Shown here: positions 4,625 through 12,830 of the stretch, in pieces
Numbering within the stretch: position 1 is the first letter of the stretch
How the letters are laid out: every line of letters starts with the position of its first letter
Source of the DNA: Cycloclasticus sp. symbiont of Poecilosclerida sp. M
GTDB lineage: Bacteria > Pseudomonadota > Gammaproteobacteria > Methylococcales > Cycloclasticaceae
NCBI GenBank assembly: GCA_002101225.1
Contig: LWTN01000244.1
Span: forward strand, 22,584 to 86,583
Direction: 5' to 3'
Length of the DNA stretch: 64,000 nucleotides
Position numbers and translations under genes: made by a program
The notes under the pieces: generated by a model
Seen by the model: the letters and a program-made list of their open reading frames with translations, nothing else
Told to the model about the DNA's origin: nothing
The model's database searches: none

Positions 4625-5377
4625 TTAGATTAACGGTTCTAGTTGTTTATTGTTTTGGATAAGCCGGTCTTTAAATTCAGCAATGTTATTGGCTGCCCGT
4701 TCAGACCTTTGAATATCGACTGTTACGTCTGCAATGATTCTGCTGGGGGCGGGGGATAAAAATAAAATACGGTCGGCGAGTTCGATAGCTTCCGATAAGT
4801 CGTGGGTGACAAATAGGATGCTTCTAGGTTGTTCGTGCCACAGCTTGAGCAGTAACTCCCGCGCTTTTCTAGCCGTTGGTTGGTCTAGTGATACAAAAGG
4901 CTCGTCCATTAAAAGCACGTGTGCGGTAACAGAAAAGGCTCGGGCAAGTGCGGCACGCCTTTGCATACCTAGCGACAGGTGGTGAGGGTAGCTGTTAACA
5001 AATTTATCTAAGCCAAGGTTAGATAGTATGTGCGTTATGGCTGCTTTGGATTCGGCTGATGTTTCTGGCTCATTGGTGGCGAGGGCGATATTCTCTTGCA
5101 CCGTCCGCCAGGGTAGTAAACGGGGTGTCTGAAAAACATAGCTCGTGGCGTTTACGTTTGAATTTTGTGTTTTTAGTTTGATTTCACCTGTGAATTGGGT
5201 GTCGAGCTCTGCGATGATATTCAACAAGGTTGTTTTTCCGCAACCCGAAGGGCCTACGATGCAGGTAAAGCCGTTTTCTGCTTGCTCGAAAAAAAGATCT
5301 TTTATGGCAATATGCTTCTCCGCTTTACCGGTGGCGCTAAAAGATTTTTCTTTGATGTTGATGGTGAGTTGAGTCAT
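4625..5377 (-). CDS. ABC transporter ATP-binding protein, NitT/TauT family
   Basis: Walker A GPSGCGKT, signature LSLGMQRR, Walker B LLMDEPF, H-loop FVTHD. Confidence 0.93.
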   Translation of the reverse strand: MTQLTINIKEKSFSATGKAEKHIAIKDLFFEQAENGFTCIVGPSGCGKTTLLNIIAELDTQFTGEIKLKTQNSNVNATSYVFQTPRLLPWRTVQENIALATNEPETSAESKAAITHILSNLGLDKFVNSYPHHLSLGMQRRAALARAFSVTAHVLLMDEPFVSLDQPTARKARELLLKLWHEQPRSILFVTHDLSEAIELADRILFLSPAPSRIIADVTVDIQRSERAANNIAEFKDRLIQNNKQLEPLI

Positions 5378-5382
5378 TGGGC

Positions 5383-6126
5383 TTATTTCCAGCGTTGAGA
5401 ATGGGTGTCAAGCGGCTTAAGAATAGCTGTTTCAATAAGCTGGATAACGATGATAAACGCGACCGTGTAAACGAGAATGCTCGTCACGTCAAAGAGTTGG
5501 AAAAACAAATGGATTTGATAGCCCATGCCATCACTACGTCCAAGTAATTCAACGACTAGAATAATTTTCCATATGAGGGCTAGGCCGGTTCGGGCAGACG
5601 CCATGATATAGGGATACAGTTGGGGTAAAATTACGTGGCGTAACATTTTTAAGCGTGAAAACTGGTACGCCTTCGCCATTTGTACTAAATCTTCATCAAG
5701 GTTTCGCGCGCCTTCTCTTAGCGTGACGATGACATTAGGTATTTTGTTAACGACAACGGCTAAGATGGCTGCCGTCTCGATAAGGCCGAACCAGACATAA
5801 CATAAGATGATGGTGACAAGGGCCGGGATATTGAGAAAAATAATTAACCAATTATCAAAAAAAGCATTAGCTTTTTGGGAGCGCCCTAGAGCGATGCCAA
5901 CGGCGGACCCTATCGTCATAGCGATAAAAAAACTGACAGTGAGACGGTACAATGTAATGGCAAGGTGGTGGGGTAGTTCACCACGAGTTATTTCATTGAA
6001 TAATGCGACTAAAACTTCGGCGGGTTCAGGCAATAAGGGTGTGCTCGCGAGCAGAGCACACAGTTGCCATATCAGCAAAAGAGCGCCTAACGATAGAGTT
6101 GATGTTAAAAAAGACGAACGGGGCAT
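5383..6126 (-). CDS. ABC transporter permease, NitT/TauT family
   Basis: TM helices; EAA-like loop EGARNLDEDLVQMAKAY; WKIILVVELLGRSDGMG. Confidence 0.92.
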   Translation of the reverse strand: MPRSSFLTSTLSLGALLLIWQLCALLASTPLLPEPAEVLVALFNEITRGELPHHLAITLYRLTVSFFIAMTIGSAVGIALGRSQKANAFFDNWLIIFLNIPALVTIILCYVWFGLIETAAILAVVVNKIPNVIVTLREGARNLDEDLVQMAKAYQFSRLKMLRHVILPQLYPYIMASARTGLALIWKIILVVELLGRSDGMGYQIHLFFQLFDVTSILVYTVAFIIVIQLIETAILKPLDTHSQRWK

Positions 6127-6144
6127 GTGATCTAAAGCATTAAT

Positions 6145-7122
6145 TTAGTCGTGACTCCAGAATACATCAGCTGGAATAGGTTCTACAGTTCTTACCAATT
6201 TATCTTCGCTTGTTTCAGACAAGACTGTATAAGCCTTTTTAATGGCAGTTTTTTCGGCACCGCCCCAGCTCGCTATACGTCCTTTGCAATAACCGGCGCG
6301 TAACAAGTTTTGTGTGTTGGGGTCAGTTGTTTTTGTAAGCGGAAGGGTAGCTTGCCAATCTTTATCTGAGCTGCATATTAAATTGGCAGCCTGTCGACTA
6401 GCCTCTAAAAACTTTTTGACAGTCTCCGCGTGTTTCTTACCCCAGCTGCGGTTAAATACAAAACCTAAAATAGGAATATTTTTTTTAATACCCAATAGGT
6501 CTAAAATATCGTGGGTATCCAAGAGTTTACGAAAGCCTTGGGCTTCAAGTCTTGCGCTGTAGTGCCAGTAATTTATGAGGGCGTCCACTTTACGTTGTTG
6601 CGCCAAGTTGTTTAATAACGGAGGCGCACCAAAAACCTTTTCGACTTGTTGGTCTAAGTCGTTGTTTGATTGGTTAGAAAGTGCTTTAAGAAACAACCAG
6701 TTTTTATCTAAGCCACCGCCGGCGATACCCAACTTTTTACCGATTAAATCGTTTGTGGAATGAATCGCCGACTCGGCGGGCACCATCAAGGCGCCTGCAG
6801 AGCTTGAGTAGGGTGCGAATTGATAGTGAAACCCGTTCGCGCGTTGTCCAATTGTCCACACCCAGTCTGCAACTATAATATGGGTTGCGCCAGCTTGTAA
6901 TGCAATCTTAGTCGCCTGCGTACTAGCAAGCGGCTGAATATTCAGGGAAAAACCGTTTTCTTCATCGAGTTGGTTTCGTTTTATTGTTTGTAGCGTCCAA
7001 TTAACGGTGCCAAACTCTAAAACAGAAATATTGATGGCCTCGTTTTTTTGTTCCGGCTCGCTACACGATAAAACAGCCAAAACGAGTGGTATCAAAAGAA
7101 AACGAGTAGAAAACTTGAACAT
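6145..7122 (-). CDS. ABC substrate-binding protein, NMT1/THI5/SsuA-like (possibly PqqT-like); possible lipoprotein
   Basis: Likely start is the ATG at 7122 (MFKFSTRFLLIPLVLAVLSC, weak lipobox). FGTVNW, IIVADWVW, GKKLGIAGG, DALINYWH. First gene of the ABC operon. Confidence 0.8.
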   Translation of the reverse strand: MFKFSTRFLLIPLVLAVLSCSEPEQKNEAINISVLEFGTVNWTLQTIKRNQLDEENGFSLNIQPLASTQATKIALQAGATHIIVADWVWTIGQRANGFHYQFAPYSSSAGALMVPAESAIHSTNDLIGKKLGIAGGGLDKNWLFLKALSNQSNNDLDQQVEKVFGAPPLLNNLAQQRKVDALINYWHYSARLEAQGFRKLLDTHDILDLLGIKKNIPILGFVFNRSWGKKHAETVKKFLEASRQAANLICSSDKDWQATLPLTKTTDPNTQNLLRAGYCKGRIASWGGAEKTAIKKAYTVLSETSEDKLVRTVEPIPADVFWSHD

Positions 7123-7474
7123 GATTTTAAAAGGCAAATATTTATGTAATAAAAATAATGTGCCATAGCTTAACGTAAAGCTTGATTTGCTAGAAGTGTT
7201 AATACCAAGTCGCAACTGCAGCTTGAAATCAAACCAAACATAAGTTGGGTTTAAAATAAAAAATTCCATGACGAAAATTACTAACATTTCGACGAAGCTA
7301 TAAATTTATTGACCAATAAAATTAAAATAATGTATGGTTGTATTCAATAAACGAGTATTGATGTAAGTCGTTAATATCAATGAGAATTATTTCTTTTTGA
7401 TAATCATTCTTGCTTGAATAATAACTATATGAAAGACATAGCATTTTTAGAAAAGGTTGGAGCGTGTTGTACGT

Positions 7475-8491
7475 ATGATTAAGAGTTCTGCGGTACCTAT
7501 TCAAAATAAATTAATCGACCGTTTTGGTCGACAAGTGACGTATGTGCGTATTTCGGTAACGGATCGTTGTGATTTTCGCTGTGTTTACTGCATGAGTGAA
7601 GATATGGAGTTCTTGCCGCGTGAACAAGTATTAACATTTGAAGAAATCGCAACCTTATCGCGTGCTTTTGTTGAAATGGGCGTGACTAAAATTCGCATTA
7701 CAGGTGGTGAGCCGCTCGTTCGTAAAGATGTTGTCGGTATGTTGGCAGAGATTTCACAATTAGACGGTTTGGATGAGTTAGTTATTACGACGAATGGATC
7801 TCAGCTTGTAAAACTTGCGGAACCGTTGAAGAAGGCGGGTGTAAAGCGCATTAACATTAGCCTTGATAGTCTAGACGCCGATAAGTTTAAGAAAGTAACC
7901 CGAGTGGGTGACCTTGATGTGGTACTTAAAGGTATACAGGCGGCCAAAAAAGCAGGCTTTGAAAAAATTAAGTTAAACGCGGTGATTCTAAAAAATAGAA
8001 ATCACGATGAAGTTAATAGTTTAGTTCAGTACGCGATGGAAGAAGGGCTTGATATAAGCTTTATTGAAGAAATGCCTTTGGGCGTGGTCGATAGCCACTC
8101 TAGAGAGGAGGCTTATTATTCCAGTGACGAAATCAAGCGCGATATTGAACAGCAGTTTGACTTGCTACCCAGCACGAAGACAACGGGTGGCCCGGCGCGT
8201 TATTACAGCGTGCAAGGGTATGACAATATGGTGGGCTTTATATCGCCACACAGCCATAATTTTTGTGATACTTGCAATAGAGTTCGAGTGACAGCATCAG
8301 GTTTATTATTGCTGTGTTTAGGGCAAGAACATTCGATGGATTTAAAGCGTGTTTTGAGGGCAAATCCTACCGATTTGAATAAGGTTAAACAGGCTCTTAT
8401 AGAGTCGATGGAGATTAAACCGAAAGGACATGATTTTGATATTACTGAGCAACCTGTTATCTTTAGGCATATGAGCGTAACGGGTGGTTAG
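7475..8491 (+). CDS. moaA: GTP 3',8-cyclase MoaA (molybdopterin biosynthesis)
   Basis: Radical-SAM CDFRCVYC, C-terminal cluster CDTCNRVR...C, C-terminal MSVTGG. Start probably the ATG at 7475 (ORF track 7457). Confidence 0.95.
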   Translation: MIKSSAVPIQNKLIDRFGRQVTYVRISVTDRCDFRCVYCMSEDMEFLPREQVLTFEEIATLSRAFVEMGVTKIRITGGEPLVRKDVVGMLAEISQLDGLDELVITTNGSQLVKLAEPLKKAGVKRINISLDSLDADKFKKVTRVGDLDVVLKGIQAAKKAGFEKIKLNAVILKNRNHDEVNSLVQYAMEEGLDISFIEEMPLGVVDSHSREEAYYSSDEIKRDIEQQFDLLPSTKTTGGPARYYSVQGYDNMVGFISPHSHNFCDTCNRVRVTASGLLLLCLGQEHSMDLKRVLRANPTDLNKVKQALIESMEIKPKGHDFDITEQPVIFRHMSVTGG

Positions 8492-8539: not shown

Positions 8540-9007
8540 ATGCAGATGTCATTAGTTATAGACGCAAACAAATGTACAGGTTGTTTGCAATGCGAAATGG
8601 CTTGTTCTTATGAAGGTGAAGGTGTTTTTAACCCGACTAAGTCAAGAATTAAAATTTTCCCATTTCATGATGAAGGTATTTTCGTACCTTATACGTGTAC
8701 TCAATGTGATGAAGCTTGGTGTATGCATGCATGCCCAGTAGAAGCTATCGTTATCAACAAAGCGACAGGCGCAAAAGAAATCGTTAACGATTTATGCGTA
8801 GGTTGTAAAGTTTGTACGATTGCTTGCCCATTCGGTACGGTGAACTACAACGCTGATAGCGGCAAAGTGATTAAGTGTGACCTTTGTGGCGGTGACCCAG
8901 AGTGTGCTAAAGCATGCCCAACGGATGCGATTACCTACCAAGATGCGAACTGGACAGGGTATGACAAAATGAAAGACTACGCAGCTAAAGCAGTTCCTGC
9001 TAGCTAG
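8540..9007 (+). CDS. aorA: Aldehyde oxidoreductase polyferredoxin subunit (4x[4Fe-4S])
   Basis: 16 Cys in four ferredoxin-type groups; lies directly upstream of the AOR catalytic gene; strong RBS. Confidence 0.88.
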   Translation: MQMSLVIDANKCTGCLQCEMACSYEGEGVFNPTKSRIKIFPFHDEGIFVPYTCTQCDEAWCMHACPVEAIVINKATGAKEIVNDLCVGCKVCTIACPFGTVNYNADSGKVIKCDLCGGDPECAKACPTDAITYQDANWTGYDKMKDYAAKAVPAS

Positions 9008-9046
9008 GCTTGGCGTATCAAATAATTTGAATTTTGGAGGAAGACA

Positions 9047-10906
9047 ATGTCTTGGACTAAAAAGGTATTAAGAATTAATTTAACGAAGGGAACTTGTAAA
9101 AGTGAACCTTTGAATATGGAATGGGCTGAACAGTTTTTGGGCCAACGAGGTTTAGCAACTAAATACCTCACGGAAGAAGTGCCACCTAAAACGGACCCAC
9201 TATCACCCGAAAACACCATGTATTTGATTACTGGGCCTTTAACAGGAACAATGGCGTCTACAGCGGGTCGTTATTCAGTGGTAACTAAGAGCCCATTGAC
9301 AGGCGTAATTGCTTGTTCTAATTCAGGTGGCTTCTTCGGTAATGAAATGAAGTGTGCCGGTTGGGATATGGTTATTTTAGAAGGTAAAGCAAAAAGTCCT
9401 GTTTATATCCACATTGACGACGACGACGCACAAATTTTACCCGCCGATGAAATTTGGGGTAAATCAGTATGGGAAGCTGATGAGTGGTTACACGCCAAAC
9501 ATCAAGACCCTCAATTACGTGTTGCAGCCGTAGGTGTATCAGCCGAAAAAGGCGTGCTTTATGCAGGAATTATTAACGATTTACATCGTGCAGCAGGCCG
9601 CTCGGGCGTTGGCACAGTGATGGCTTCTAAGAACGTTAAAGCAGTTACTATCCGTGGTAGTAAAGGTGTGAGTGTAGATGACCCTAAGGCATTTTTCGAA
9701 GCAACCACTGCCGCGAAAAAGATATTAGCAGAAAATCCAGTAACGGGTGAAGGCTTGCCAGCATTAGGCACACAAGTGTTGATGAATGTAATTAATGAAA
9801 CGGGCGCTATGCCAACGCATAACTGGAAACATTCGGTTTTTGAAGGTGCTTCTAAAATATCAGGTGAAGCGATGCTTGAAGCACGTGATACAGATGGTAA
9901 GCCTAACTTGACTAGAAATGCAGGCTGTTTTGCATGTACGATATCCTGTGGCCGTATTTCAACCATTAATCCAGAACATTTCAGTGTTCAGAACAAAGAT
10001 GACTTGCATAAGTCTTACGCAGGTAACTCAGGTGGGCTTGAGTATGAAGCTGCATGGGCGCTCGGTAGTGATACAGGCATTGATGATTTAGATGCGCTTA
10101 CTTACGCACAATTTGTTTGTAATGAGCAAGGCATAGATCCAATTTCATTAGGTTCTACGATTGCTGCGGCGATGGAAATGTTTGAAGAAGGCTTTATTAC
10201 CACGAAAGATACCGATGGTATCGACTTGAAATTTGGTAATGCAGAAGCACTTGTTAAGTGTACTGAGCTAGTTGGAAAAGGCGAAGGCTTTGGCGCTGAG
10301 TTAGGTCAAGGTTCAGCTAAATTCTGCGCAAAACATGGCCATCCAGAGTTATCTATGACAGTACGTGGGCAAGAATTCCCAGCGTATGACCCTCGCGGTA
10401 TTCAAGGTATGGGCTTAGGTTATGCAACGTCTAACCGGGGCGCATGTCACTTACGTGGTTACACAGTAGCCTCTGAAGTGTTAGGTATCCCCATTAAAAC
10501 GGACCCACTAGAAACAGAAGGTAAAGCAGGTTTGCAAATCGCTTTCCAAAATGCAACGGCAGCGTTTGACTCTGCTGGTATTTGTATCTTCACCTCTTTC
10601 GCATGGTCTCTAGAAGACGTAGCGCCACAGTTAAATGCTGCGTGTGAAGGCGAGTGGACTGTGGAACGTTTAGGTGAAATTGGTGAGCGTATTTGGAACC
10701 TAGAGAGGCTTTATAACGAAGCAGCGGGTTTCGGTGGCGCATCAGACACATTACCACCAAGGCTGTTAAAAGAAGGCGCTACATCAGGCCCTGCAGAAGG
10801 TAAAGTAAGTGGTTTGGCCACTATGCTTCCTGAGTACTATGCAGAGCGTGGTTGGGCTAAAGATGGTTCTGTAACGAAAGAAACAAAGGCGCGATTAGGG
10901 CTTTAA
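9047..10906 (+). CDS. aorB: Tungsten-type aldehyde oxidoreductase catalytic subunit (AOR family)
   Basis: 619 aa; AAGRSGVGTVMASKNVKA, CFACTISC (C-x2-C-x3-C), GLEYE, GIDPIS, RGACHL, DSAGICIF. Confidence 0.95.
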   Translation: MSWTKKVLRINLTKGTCKSEPLNMEWAEQFLGQRGLATKYLTEEVPPKTDPLSPENTMYLITGPLTGTMASTAGRYSVVTKSPLTGVIACSNSGGFFGNEMKCAGWDMVILEGKAKSPVYIHIDDDDAQILPADEIWGKSVWEADEWLHAKHQDPQLRVAAVGVSAEKGVLYAGIINDLHRAAGRSGVGTVMASKNVKAVTIRGSKGVSVDDPKAFFEATTAAKKILAENPVTGEGLPALGTQVLMNVINETGAMPTHNWKHSVFEGASKISGEAMLEARDTDGKPNLTRNAGCFACTISCGRISTINPEHFSVQNKDDLHKSYAGNSGGLEYEAAWALGSDTGIDDLDALTYAQFVCNEQGIDPISLGSTIAAAMEMFEEGFITTKDTDGIDLKFGNAEALVKCTELVGKGEGFGAELGQGSAKFCAKHGHPELSMTVRGQEFPAYDPRGIQGMGLGYATSNRGACHLRGYTVASEVLGIPIKTDPLETEGKAGLQIAFQNATAAFDSAGICIFTSFAWSLEDVAPQLNAACEGEWTVERLGEIGERIWNLERLYNEAAGFGGASDTLPPRLLKEGATSGPAEGKVSGLATMLPEYYAERGWAKDGSVTKETKARLGL

Positions 10907-10931
10907 TACAGACAAGCGGCATTAAGATAGG

Positions 10932-10970
10932 AAAGGGCGATAACTACTGAGTTGCGCCCTTTTTCTTTTT
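10932..10970 (+). terminator. Intrinsic-terminator-like hairpin between aorB and aorC
   Basis: AAAGGGCG...CGCCCTTT stem followed by TTTTCTTTTT. Confidence 0.7.
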
Positions 10971-11005
10971 ATTAGAATTATTTAAATATACGACGAGGGG
11001 ATAAG

Positions 11006-12274
11006 ATGAAACACGTCATTATTGGCGCAGGGCCATCGGGTGTGGTTGCTGCAGAGCAGATAAGAAAATTAAATACTAAAGCGTCTATCACCATCATTGG
11101 TGATGAGCCAGAAGCGCCTTATTCAAGAATGGCTATTCCCTATCATTTAATTGGTGATATTGAAGAGAAAGGAACTCACCTTCGTCATGCAAAAGGTCAC
11201 TTTAAGACGTTAAATATTGATGTACGAAATGCGCGTGTTGAAGCTGTAGACTCAACCAATAAAACGGTGTCATTAAATAATGGGGCTGATGTTTCATACG
11301 ATAAGTTATTGATAGCTTCAGGCTCACGTCCAAACGCACCTTCCATTCCGGGGATAGATCAAGCGGGTGTGCACTCTTGTTGGACCTTAGAGGATGCACG
11401 TGCGATTGCAGCATTGGCAAAGCCAGGTGCTAAAGTCATTCAAATTGGGGCAGGTTTTATCGCTTGCATTATTTTGGAAGCATTAGCGCGTAGAGATGTT
11501 GACTTAACGGTAGTAGAAATGGAAGACCGCATGGTGCCTCGGATGATGGATAATGTGGCGGGCAATATGATTCAAGACTGGTGTGTAGAGAAAAATATTA
11601 ATGTGTTCTCGAACGGTCAGGTGATGGAAATTGTAAAAGTGGATGGTGATCACACCTTCAAAGTTAAAGTTAAAACCCCTACAGGCGAAACAGAATTAGA
11701 CGCAGACCTTGTGATTTCAGCAACGGGTGTGAGCCCTTGCGTGGATTTTCTTGCAGACTCAGGAATAGAAATTGATACAGGCATTATCATTAATAAAAAC
11801 ATGGAAACAAATGTGCCTGATATTTACGCTTCAGGTGATGTGGCGCAAGGTAAAGATTTTTGTACGGGTGAATATGCAGTGCAAGCTATTCAACCCACTG
11901 CAACAGAGCATGGCGTCATCGTGGCACAGAATATGGTGGGCCGCAAAGGTGCAGAGTGCGGCGGTACGATTAATATGAACGTGCTGGATACGATGGGGCT
12001 TATATCGTGCTCATTCGGTTTATGGCAAGGTGTGGAAGGGGGCGAGAGCAGTACCTTGGTGGAAAAAGACAAGTGGCGTTATATTAACCTCCAGTTTGAA
12101 GATGATGTGTTGGTGGGCGGAACAGCGATCGGAATGACGCAACATATCGGTGTGATGCGCGGATTGATACAATCTGAAACTTCATTAGGGAAATGGAAAG
12201 ACAGGTTATTGGAAAACCCTCTACAGATTATGGATGCCTATTTAGCGAGCACACATACCGCAGCAATTAGATAA
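11006..12274 (+). CDS. aorC: FAD-dependent pyridine nucleotide oxidoreductase subunit of AOR
   Basis: FAD motif GAGPSG, LLIASGS, second Rossmann motif GAGFIA, ASGDVA; position after aorB. Confidence 0.85.
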   Translation: MKHVIIGAGPSGVVAAEQIRKLNTKASITIIGDEPEAPYSRMAIPYHLIGDIEEKGTHLRHAKGHFKTLNIDVRNARVEAVDSTNKTVSLNNGADVSYDKLLIASGSRPNAPSIPGIDQAGVHSCWTLEDARAIAALAKPGAKVIQIGAGFIACIILEALARRDVDLTVVEMEDRMVPRMMDNVAGNMIQDWCVEKNINVFSNGQVMEIVKVDGDHTFKVKVKTPTGETELDADLVISATGVSPCVDFLADSGIEIDTGIIINKNMETNVPDIYASGDVAQGKDFCTGEYAVQAIQPTATEHGVIVAQNMVGRKGAECGGTINMNVLDTMGLISCSFGLWQGVEGGESSTLVEKDKWRYINLQFEDDVLVGGTAIGMTQHIGVMRGLIQSETSLGKWKDRLLENPLQIMDAYLASTHTAAIR

Positions 12275-12276
12275 AT

Positions 12277-12534
12277 ATGGCAAAAATGACCGTAAAGCTG
12301 TTTGCAACGATGATGATTTATCTTCCCGTGAATAGTACGAAATCACATGGGTTTGATTATCAATTAAAAGATGAAACAACGGTCGGCTACTTGATTGATG
12401 ACCTGAAGTTGCCAAGAAATGTTATTCATCTCGTGTTATTAAATGGCATCTATGTGTGTATGCAGAACTTTGAAACGACGATGTTAAAAGATGGTGATGT
12501 GCTCGCGTTCTGGCCGCAAGTAGCCGGCGGATAG
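12277..12534 (+). CDS. aorD: MoaD/ThiS-family sulfur carrier (AorD-like)
   Basis: 85 aa, ubiquitin-like pattern VKLFA...LKDGDVLAFWPQVAGG with C-terminal GG. Confidence 0.85.
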   Translation: MAKMTVKLFATMMIYLPVNSTKSHGFDYQLKDETTVGYLIDDLKLPRNVIHLVLLNGIYVCMQNFETTMLKDGDVLAFWPQVAGG

Positions 12535-12536
12535 AG

Positions 12537-12830
12537 GTGTTGGATTTAGCAGAGAAAGCCTCGATTGAAATGGGCTTTACCCGTCTAGAATTTAATAACT
12601 TATTACTTGCTCAGGATGTATTCGAGTTTACAACTAATGGCAATCGAGTCGTATTTCTCTATATGGATGGGGAGGTAAAAATGCGTCTTGGTGATGATGA
12701 TTATCGTTGTATTAGCTCATGGAAAATACCGAAGATTAAAATAGATTTAGACTTCTCAGGTTTAGAAGAATCGAGTCGCCGCCCGTTTATGAATACCTTT
12801 ACTAAAACGTTCCTTAAAGGTGGCGGCTAG
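12537..12830 (+). CDS. aorE: Small protein of unknown function (AorE-like)
   Basis: 97 aa, last gene of the aor cluster; [10 protein letters not shown]-terminal motif, ends FLKGGG. Called from synteny with the Aromatoleum aorABCDE layout. Confidence 0.65.

Follow-up and report, generated by a model that had tools for sequence, protein, structure and literature searches.

A PqqT-family ABC importer, probably for pyrroloquinoline quinone, encoded opposite moaA and tungsten aldehyde oxidoreductase genes in a symbiotic Cycloclasticus

Introduction

A 64,000 nucleotide stretch of DNA from the Cycloclasticus sp. symbiont of Poecilosclerida sp. M (GenBank assembly GCA_002101225.1, contig LWTN01000244.1, positions 22,584 to 86,583; hereafter the window) carries an operon for an ATP-binding cassette (ABC) importer that lies head-to-head with moaA and the genes of a tungsten aldehyde oxidoreductase (AOR), and this arrangement raises the questions of what the importer carries and whether it serves the enzyme encoded opposite. 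A first-pass annotation of this DNA had put forward an importer of pyrroloquinoline quinone (PQQ) resembling PqqT or, as an alternative, of a pterin cofactor, and had supposed that co-regulation with aor would couple a PQQ-dependent alcohol dehydrogenase to AOR. We report here that the operon encodes a member of the already characterised PqqT family, from a gamma-proteobacterial branch that was previously without specific annotation. Its ligand is probably free PQQ, and its truly conserved partner, judged from the gene neighbourhoods of its relatives, is moaA and not AOR.

Methylococcales, in which many of the relatives described below are found, depend on PQQ methanol dehydrogenases. For Cycloclasticus, PQQ alcohol dehydrogenase genes and protein have been reported, the enzyme is placed in the periplasm in published models, and its action followed by that of a tungsten AOR has been proposed for alkane oxidation (PMC12510462). 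We found no literature on PQQ synthesis in Cycloclasticus.

The binding protein and its operon belong to the PqqT family

The open reading frame (ORF) list places the genes for a binding protein, a permease and an ATPase consecutively on the minus strand, filling positions 4625-7122, and the family searches agree with the head-to-head arrangement with moaA-aor that the first-pass annotation had described. The binding protein (6145..7122, minus strand) has 325 amino acids. Its mechanical ORF continues to 7287, beyond the ATG at 7122; however, this ATG is the likely start, because the signal peptide MFKFSTRFLLIPLVLAVLSC opens there and relatives align from there. The protein is predicted to be a lipoprotein, with the signal ending at Cys22 and a lipobox by the PROSITE rule as we read it.

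When PDB chains were searched with phmmer, PqqT (entries 9B1U, 9B1V and 9OOZ) was the sole significant family (E 6e-50), residues 28-321 of the binding protein aligning with chain residues 3-297 at 33% identity. These entries show a periplasmic protein of Methylorubrum extorquens AM1 that binds PQQ with nanomolar affinity and has been crystallised with it, 9B1U being the PQQ-bound form (PMC11331073). An AlphaFold2 model of the window protein was built from 86 sequences and had a mean predicted local distance difference test (pLDDT) score of 93.2. Its top Foldseek matches were the same three PqqT entries, with template-modelling (TM) scores of 0.83-0.91, E ~1e-31, 32% identity and a root-mean-square deviation of 2.3-2.6 Å over 298 columns. 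The next matches were SsuA, Thi5, TauA and ThiY, at E ~1e-15, 14-18% identity and TM 0.6-0.77, so that the protein groups with PqqT and not with SsuA, TauA or Thi5. To our knowledge no soluble PQQ-binding transport protein other than PqqT is known; besides the work of Thompson and colleagues in 2024 (PMC11331073), the PqqT system of M. extorquens AM1 is reportedly also to be credited to Ho and Cotruvo in 2019. The motifs that the first-pass annotation had quoted in support of a PqqT-type protein are present as FGTVNW, LDEENGF and ADW.

In the PqqT structure PQQ is contacted by the backbone and side chain of T41, by the backbone amides of L37, A42 and G112 and by the side chains of K142 and N143; Y188 stacks on the ligand, I222 packs against it and E111 faces away (PMC11331073). 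Residue numbers in the PDB chains differ by 27 from those in the paper, an offset that we verified on L37, T41, A42, E111, G112, K142, N143, Y188 and I222. The equivalents in the window protein are L35, T39, V40, A109 (for E111), G110, K140, N141, Y185 and L219. It can be seen in the alignment of 59 gamma and 27 alpha sequences that the positions of T41, G112 and K142 are invariant, that the N143 position is N or S (plus one G within the alpha group), and that the Y188 position is Y, or F in some Cycloclasticus. At the L37 position the residue is L or V, and at that of I222 it is I or L. The PQQ-holding side chains are thus conserved between the two groups.

The other two genes lead to the same family. 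The permease (5383..6126, minus strand, 247 amino acids) is a TauC/SsuC-like type I importer subunit (BPD_transp_1, 85 bits), and the ATPase (4625..5377, minus strand, 250 amino acids) matches ABC_tran at 92.7 bits. They are 49% and 40% identical, respectively, to their counterparts in the M. extorquens pqqT operon, in which the gene order is also the same, and on the strength of these identities we regard the whole operon as orthologous to that of M. extorquens. In Pfam the binding protein matched NMT1 only, and weakly (39.5 bits), and among the NCBIfam models it scored 30.9 bits against SsuA_fam (TIGR01728; cut-off 163.5) and 27.9 against PRK11553 (cut-off 299). The permease was nearest to SsuC and TauC, with the SsuC, SaoP and TauC models all under their cut-offs (SsuC, 112.6 against 347 bits), and the ATPase was nearest to the SaoA and TauB models. 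No ModA, TupA or WtpA oxyanion-binding family or structure was among the binding protein's matches in Pfam and NCBIfam at E <= 0.01, in the PDB sequence search or in Foldseek, in agreement with the first-pass annotation.

moaA, and not aor, is the conserved neighbour in gamma-proteobacteria

A protein database search returned 1066 relatives of the binding protein at E <= 1e-10. The named ones come from Cycloclasticus, Piscirickettsiaceae and Methylococcales and are labelled merely 'ABC transporter substrate-binding protein' or 'NitT/TauT family'. Scanning one genome per species gave 406 loci; our gamma neighbourhood counts use the best 80 of these, all of which are Cycloclasticus or Methylococcales, with genes identified by tblastn with the window proteins and by ORF clustering. 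The permease gene followed the binding-protein gene in 71 of the 80 loci and the ATPase gene was found in 69, the others lying mostly at a contig end.

Counts for moaA were made on the 70 loci that had at least 1.4 kb of sequence upstream of the binding-protein gene. In 39 of these moaA was divergent from the binding-protein gene (directly adjacent in 35, with one inserted gene in four), and in the remaining 31 there was neither moaA nor aor. The aorB gene was present at approximately 12 of the 80 loci, within the Cycloclasticus clade and in one Methylococcaceae genome (L023) that carries a complete moaA-aorABCDE set. The linkage with aor, which the first-pass annotation had proposed as a check, is therefore not unique to this genome, but it is confined to a lineage. 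Even there it erodes: six genomes of the Cycloclasticus clade (L008, L013, L014, L015, L016 and L043) have kept moaA, aorA, an aorE-like ORF and the transporter and have lost aorB, aorC and aorD, and a sponge-symbiont Cycloclasticus (L017) has the transporter with neither moaA nor aor adjoining.

Across the gamma loci there were nine variants of the gene beyond moaA and 29 of the gene that follows the ATPase, and moaA together with the transporter genes therefore appears as a four-gene module in changing surroundings. In a neighbour-joining tree of the binding proteins, moaA-linked loci occurred in both main branches and the losses were many and later, the window protein forming the deepest branch of the Cycloclasticus clade, a placement that suggests a sponge-associated relative of Cycloclasticus as the source. 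From this distribution of moaA-linked loci it is likely that aor-moaA originally faced the transporter and that this order then decayed step by step. We conclude from these comparisons that the position beside the tungsten AOR genes dates from an old arrangement which the Cycloclasticus lineage has preserved, and we do not count it as evidence that the transporter serves AOR. The AOR-specific coupling supposed in the first-pass annotation is unsupported, as no part of the neighbourhood is less stable than AOR. The idea of a regulatory unit running from PQQ alcohol dehydrogenase to tungsten AOR is correspondingly tempered, with a neighbourhood that looks inherited and that decays in related genomes.

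A Moa operon was also considered and rejected, since the genes that follow moaA in Methylococcales, read by eye and not by family models, were not further moa genes and instead looked like inorganic pyrophosphatase, HNH, Tag glycosylase, HutZ and rhodanese genes. The PqqE query gave just weak radical-SAM matches in the gamma loci, and these were to moaA.

Some side observations concern these loci. In the six genomes that have lost aorBCD, from which the catalytic tungsten subunit is therefore deleted, aorA is 93-95% identical to that of the window. In the comparison with Cycloclasticus orthologues (L002-L016) identity was uneven, being 53-58% for the binding protein, 56-62% for the ATPase and 71-77% for the permease and, in the same neighbourhood, 81-93% for MoaA, 90-97% for AorA and 82-88% for AorB. 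The residues that contact the ligand do not vary. Directly after the ATPase gene in seven Methylococcales loci (L019, L021, L022, L029, L050, L055 and L077) lies a gene for a small secreted protein of approximately 100-137 amino acids with three to four repeats of KYPA(A/S)xF(E/Q/K)(P/S)KV(I/V)Y, in which no family was recognised by eye, without a model scan.

Alphaproteobacterial pqqT loci pair with another pterin gene

We compared seven alphaproteobacterial loci, those of M. extorquens, M. nodulans, Enterovirga, Salinarimonas and three others. The operon lay 0.3-2 kb upstream of xoxF-xoxG-xoxJ in five of the seven, often with a gene for a metallo-beta-lactamase-fold protein in between, and two had no xoxF nearby. 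At six of the seven (L081, L084, L085, L086, L087 and L088), two of them without xoxF, the divergent partner was a gene for a pterin-4a-carbinolamine dehydratase (PCD; PF01329, Pterin_4a) of 125-143 amino acids, at a distance of 23-226 bp from pqqT. These proteins carry a motif that we take to be the PCD activity signature, and the PCD family is said to have been linked to molybdopterin metabolism by Naponelli and colleagues in 2008. No PCD homologue was found in the window or in the 80 gamma loci.

The transporter module thus pairs with moaA in Methylococcales and Cycloclasticus and with PCD in Methylobacterium and relatives, while the rest of its surroundings varies. It is possible, and we put it forward only tentatively, that PqqT-family ABC importers are functionally tied to pterin or pyranopterin metabolism. 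The tie may take one of two forms: the family may carry a pterin-like compound besides, or in place of, PQQ, or imported PQQ and the molybdenum or tungsten pterin cofactor may be provisioned or protected jointly. The pairing is a lead and not a result, because two independent evolutionary events are all that stands behind it and the pattern was noticed afterwards; as a lead it is testable and bears on the reason for PQQ import.

The divergent control region contains separate promoter elements

The intergenic control region (7123..7474) was studied by a promoter scan, by alignment of 13 intergenic regions and by Fur-consensus scoring. Its extent fits the gap of roughly 350 bp given in the first-pass annotation, the start codons of the binding-protein gene and moaA being 334-352 bp apart. 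On the plus strand at 7309-7338 the alignment revealed a conserved promoter-like site for moaA, consisting of TTGACC, 18 nt and TATGGT, with a second hexamer that reads TA(A/T)GGT across the 13 aligned regions. Generic promoter and terminator scans gave counts not above those of shuffled sequence, and this site was retained for its conservation across genomes. In Methylococcales a different promoter-like element, ACAATCAT(T/C)CTCGCA followed by 18 nt and TA(A/G)AAT, belongs to the transporter and is retained at loci without moaA. With separate conserved promoter elements, the two operons therefore appear to have their own promoters, and no sign of shared regulation was found. A search for riboswitches and other Rfam RNAs was negative, both over the whole window at gathering thresholds and over 7050-7550 at E <= 1.

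The best-conserved intergenic part across Cycloclasticus and L023 is an AT-rich block at 7379-7411, located by the same alignment between the moaA promoter-like site and the moaA start, which resembles a Fur box and contains AATGAGAATTATT and GATAATCATTCTT. A Fur-consensus score of at least 14/19 was reached in 14 of 78 upstream regions as against 4.5% of background windows, a figure that is indicative only, as the regions are related. We considered this block as a shared operator and rejected it, as it lies approximately 260-290 bp from the transporter start and downstream of the moaA promoter. Nor do we take it for a regulator of the transporter, because of that position and because strong matches occurred almost only at loci with moaA. 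The block suggests that the Fe-S-rich moaA-aor operon is controlled in response to iron.

PQQ as the probable ligand

The close structural and sequence relationship with PqqT makes PQQ the likely ligand. The direction of transport is likewise inferred, and so is a purpose, which would be to salvage PQQ, or to retain it, for the PQQ alcohol dehydrogenases of the periplasm. On the PqqT template, a lipid-anchored periplasmic binding protein would close its two lobes over PQQ. K140 and N141 would grip the C7 carboxylate, the C5 carbonyl and N6 being further contacts of K140; the C2 and C9 carboxylates would be gripped by T39 and backbone amides, and Y185 would stack on the ring of PQQ. The loaded protein would then dock on a dimer of the TauC/SsuC-type permease, and a dimer of the ATPase would power uptake into the cytoplasm.

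The likeness to PqqT extends to the class II periplasmic binding protein fold, the PQQ-contact residues, the three-gene order and the orthologous permease and ATPase, and the hosts of both systems rely on PQQ alcohol or methanol dehydrogenases. Several points nevertheless weigh against the assignment. Identity to PqqT is just 33%, and the reported dissociation constant of 50 nM for PQQ is for M. extorquens PqqT only and for no gamma-type member. The comparison of contacts covered only the residues given in the main text of PMC11331073. Within the set compared, glutamate at the E111 position is found in the alpha group only; gamma sequences have A, S, T or H there (alanine in the window protein), and they are further marked by an (A/S)DW motif of their own and by a conserved pair of cysteines absent in PqqT. 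The window protein further differs from PqqT in its lipoprotein-type signal. At the level of the locus, the window operon is not beside xoxF or another PQQ gene, and its partner is moaA (with aor) and not PCD. A tblastn search with XoxF, XoxG and XoxJ gave no match in the window or at the 80 gamma loci, and neither in the window nor up to 10 kb from any of these loci was a PQQ alcohol dehydrogenase or pqq gene found. The conserved neighbours are instead genes of pterin metabolism, moaA in the gamma and PCD in the alpha group, and this could indicate a different or additional role. Finally, the known PQQ enzymes discussed here work in the periplasm, whereas an ABC importer would bring PQQ into the cytoplasm. 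The benefit of such import is for this reason not evident even for PqqT, and the physiological role of that protein is unsettled on the same account.

We nevertheless consider an importer of the PqqT family with PQQ as its ligand to be the probable function of the operon. The assignment describes a conserved gamma branch of the family in methanotrophs and in hydrocarbon-degrading Cycloclasticus, animal symbionts included. It gives these proteins a concrete annotation and points to several organisms, open to cultivation, that lend themselves to tests of the role.

The two cysteines mentioned above, C250 and C279 of the binding protein (6145-7122), are kept across the gamma type, PqqT having neither, and they may form a periplasmic disulfide.

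Alternative explanations

A potential explanation that retains PQQ as the ligand is that the transporter is coupled to the supply of the pyranopterin cofactor of molybdenum and tungsten enzymes. The moaA-transporter pair would then provision the two cofactors of consecutive oxidations, the first by a PQQ alcohol or methanol dehydrogenase in the periplasm and the second by a cytoplasmic tungsten or molybdenum enzyme such as AOR or formate dehydrogenase, which generalises the coupling of PQQ alcohol dehydrogenase to AOR in the first-pass annotation. Such a coupling would fit the divergent moaA in 39 of 70 loci, the preservation of the four-gene module amid flanks of nine and 29 variants, the occurrence of the pairing in both main gamma branches and the PCD partner in six of seven alpha loci, including the two without xoxF; the published Cycloclasticus models also put the two enzymes in sequence (PMC12510462). 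However, the pairing with moaA has been lost many times (31 of 70 loci), aorB is dispensable while the transporter remains, the promoter elements are separate, and the sole operator-like block is remote from the transporter start and downstream of the moaA promoter. The gamma and alpha pairings are, moreover, only two independent events in a pattern seen post hoc, and a search for expression evidence turned up metagenome DNA runs only. We therefore regard this coupling as unlikely, though it is the alternative that survives best.

Less probable again is a pterin-like or pyranopterin-derived anion, salvaged for cofactor synthesis, as the ligand of the gamma-type binding protein in place of PQQ; an oxidation product of cyclic pyranopterin monophosphate, a pterin carboxylate or a methanopterin fragment would be candidates. 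The pterin alternative of the first-pass annotation does gain a hint from the moaA and PCD partners, and the lack of PQQ genes near any of the 80 gamma loci and a pocket suited to a flat polyanionic heteroaromatic ligand, as some pterins are, point the same way. Against this, PqqT binds PQQ at nanomolar affinity and was crystallised with it (PMC11331073), the carboxylate-holding and stacking residues are equal in both groups, and simple pterins do not have three carboxylates. We consider such a ligand improbable.

An unconventional importer of tungstate or molybdate for the adjoining moaA-aor would explain the location beside a tungsten enzyme operon, in a window in which no tupABC, modABC or wtpABC genes were recognisable by eye in the ORF list, but the binding protein has no similarity to ModA, TupA or WtpA, its nearest relative binds a large organic cofactor and the transporter persists in many genomes without adjacent moaA and aor, which together make this reading very improbable. 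The least credible of all is an ordinary importer of sulfonate, taurine, nitrate or a thiamine precursor, of the SsuA, TauA, NrtA or ThiY kind, for although the weak NMT1 match, the nearest permease and ATPase models and the public 'NitT/TauT family' labels are of that sort, the specific models stay far under their cut-offs (SsuA_fam, 30.9 against 163.5; SsuC, 112.6 against 347 bits) and in fold the protein resembles SsuA, TauA and Thi5 much less closely than it does PqqT.

Comparison with other known transporters

SsuA/TauA and ThiY/Thi5 share with the window protein the NMT1 superfamily fold and the type of permease and ATPase; they differ in their ligand-contact residues, and the fold and sequence scores given above set them apart. 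PqqU of E. coli and Pseudomonas (bioRxiv 10.1101/2024.06.04.597491) resembles the system proposed here in the proposed capture of external PQQ. It is, however, of an unrelated class, a TonB-dependent protein of the outer membrane that delivers PQQ to the periplasm, the compartment of the PQQ enzymes, whereas the importer encoded here would work at the inner membrane. TupABC, ModABC and WtpABC are likewise ABC importers often encoded beside tungsten or molybdenum enzyme and cofactor genes, but their binding proteins come from unrelated families with no sequence or fold match to the window protein.

The moaA-aor cluster and the remainder of the window

On the plus strand opposite the transporter, moaA (7457..8491) encodes a GTP 3',8-cyclase that scored 378 bits against TIGR02666 (cut-off 284). 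Its ORF opens at TTG 7457, and the likely start is the ATG at 7475, which is preceded by GGAG. It is followed on the same strand by aorA (8540-9007), a poly-ferredoxin by its Fer4 families in Pfam; by aorB (9047-10906), with AFOR_N and AFOR_C at 257 and 454 bits; by aorC (11006-12274), the flavin adenine dinucleotide (FAD) subunit, with Pyr_redox_2; and by aorD (12277-12534), which is MoaD/ThiS-like (ThiS/MoaD). A further ORF of 97 amino acids with a GTG start (12537-12830) occupies the aorE position in the operon and had no Pfam or NCBIfam match. The layout of poly-ferredoxin, AFOR, FAD subunit and MoaD-like protein agrees with that of the AorABCDE operon of Aromatoleum aromaticum, which specifies a three-subunit tungsten enzyme and in which AorE is MoaD-like (PMC6365974). 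Going by this gene content, 8540..12830 holds the genes of a bacterial tungsten aldehyde oxidoreductase of three subunits, together with MoaD-like maturation genes, and stands outside the transporter operon. The remaining genes of the window are housekeeping genes according to the ORF list.

The ORF at the aorE position is 30-42% identical to most of its Cycloclasticus counterparts and 65% identical to that of L011. The exact window sequence occurs in sponge and symbiont metagenome DNA runs only, with no RNA run among them.

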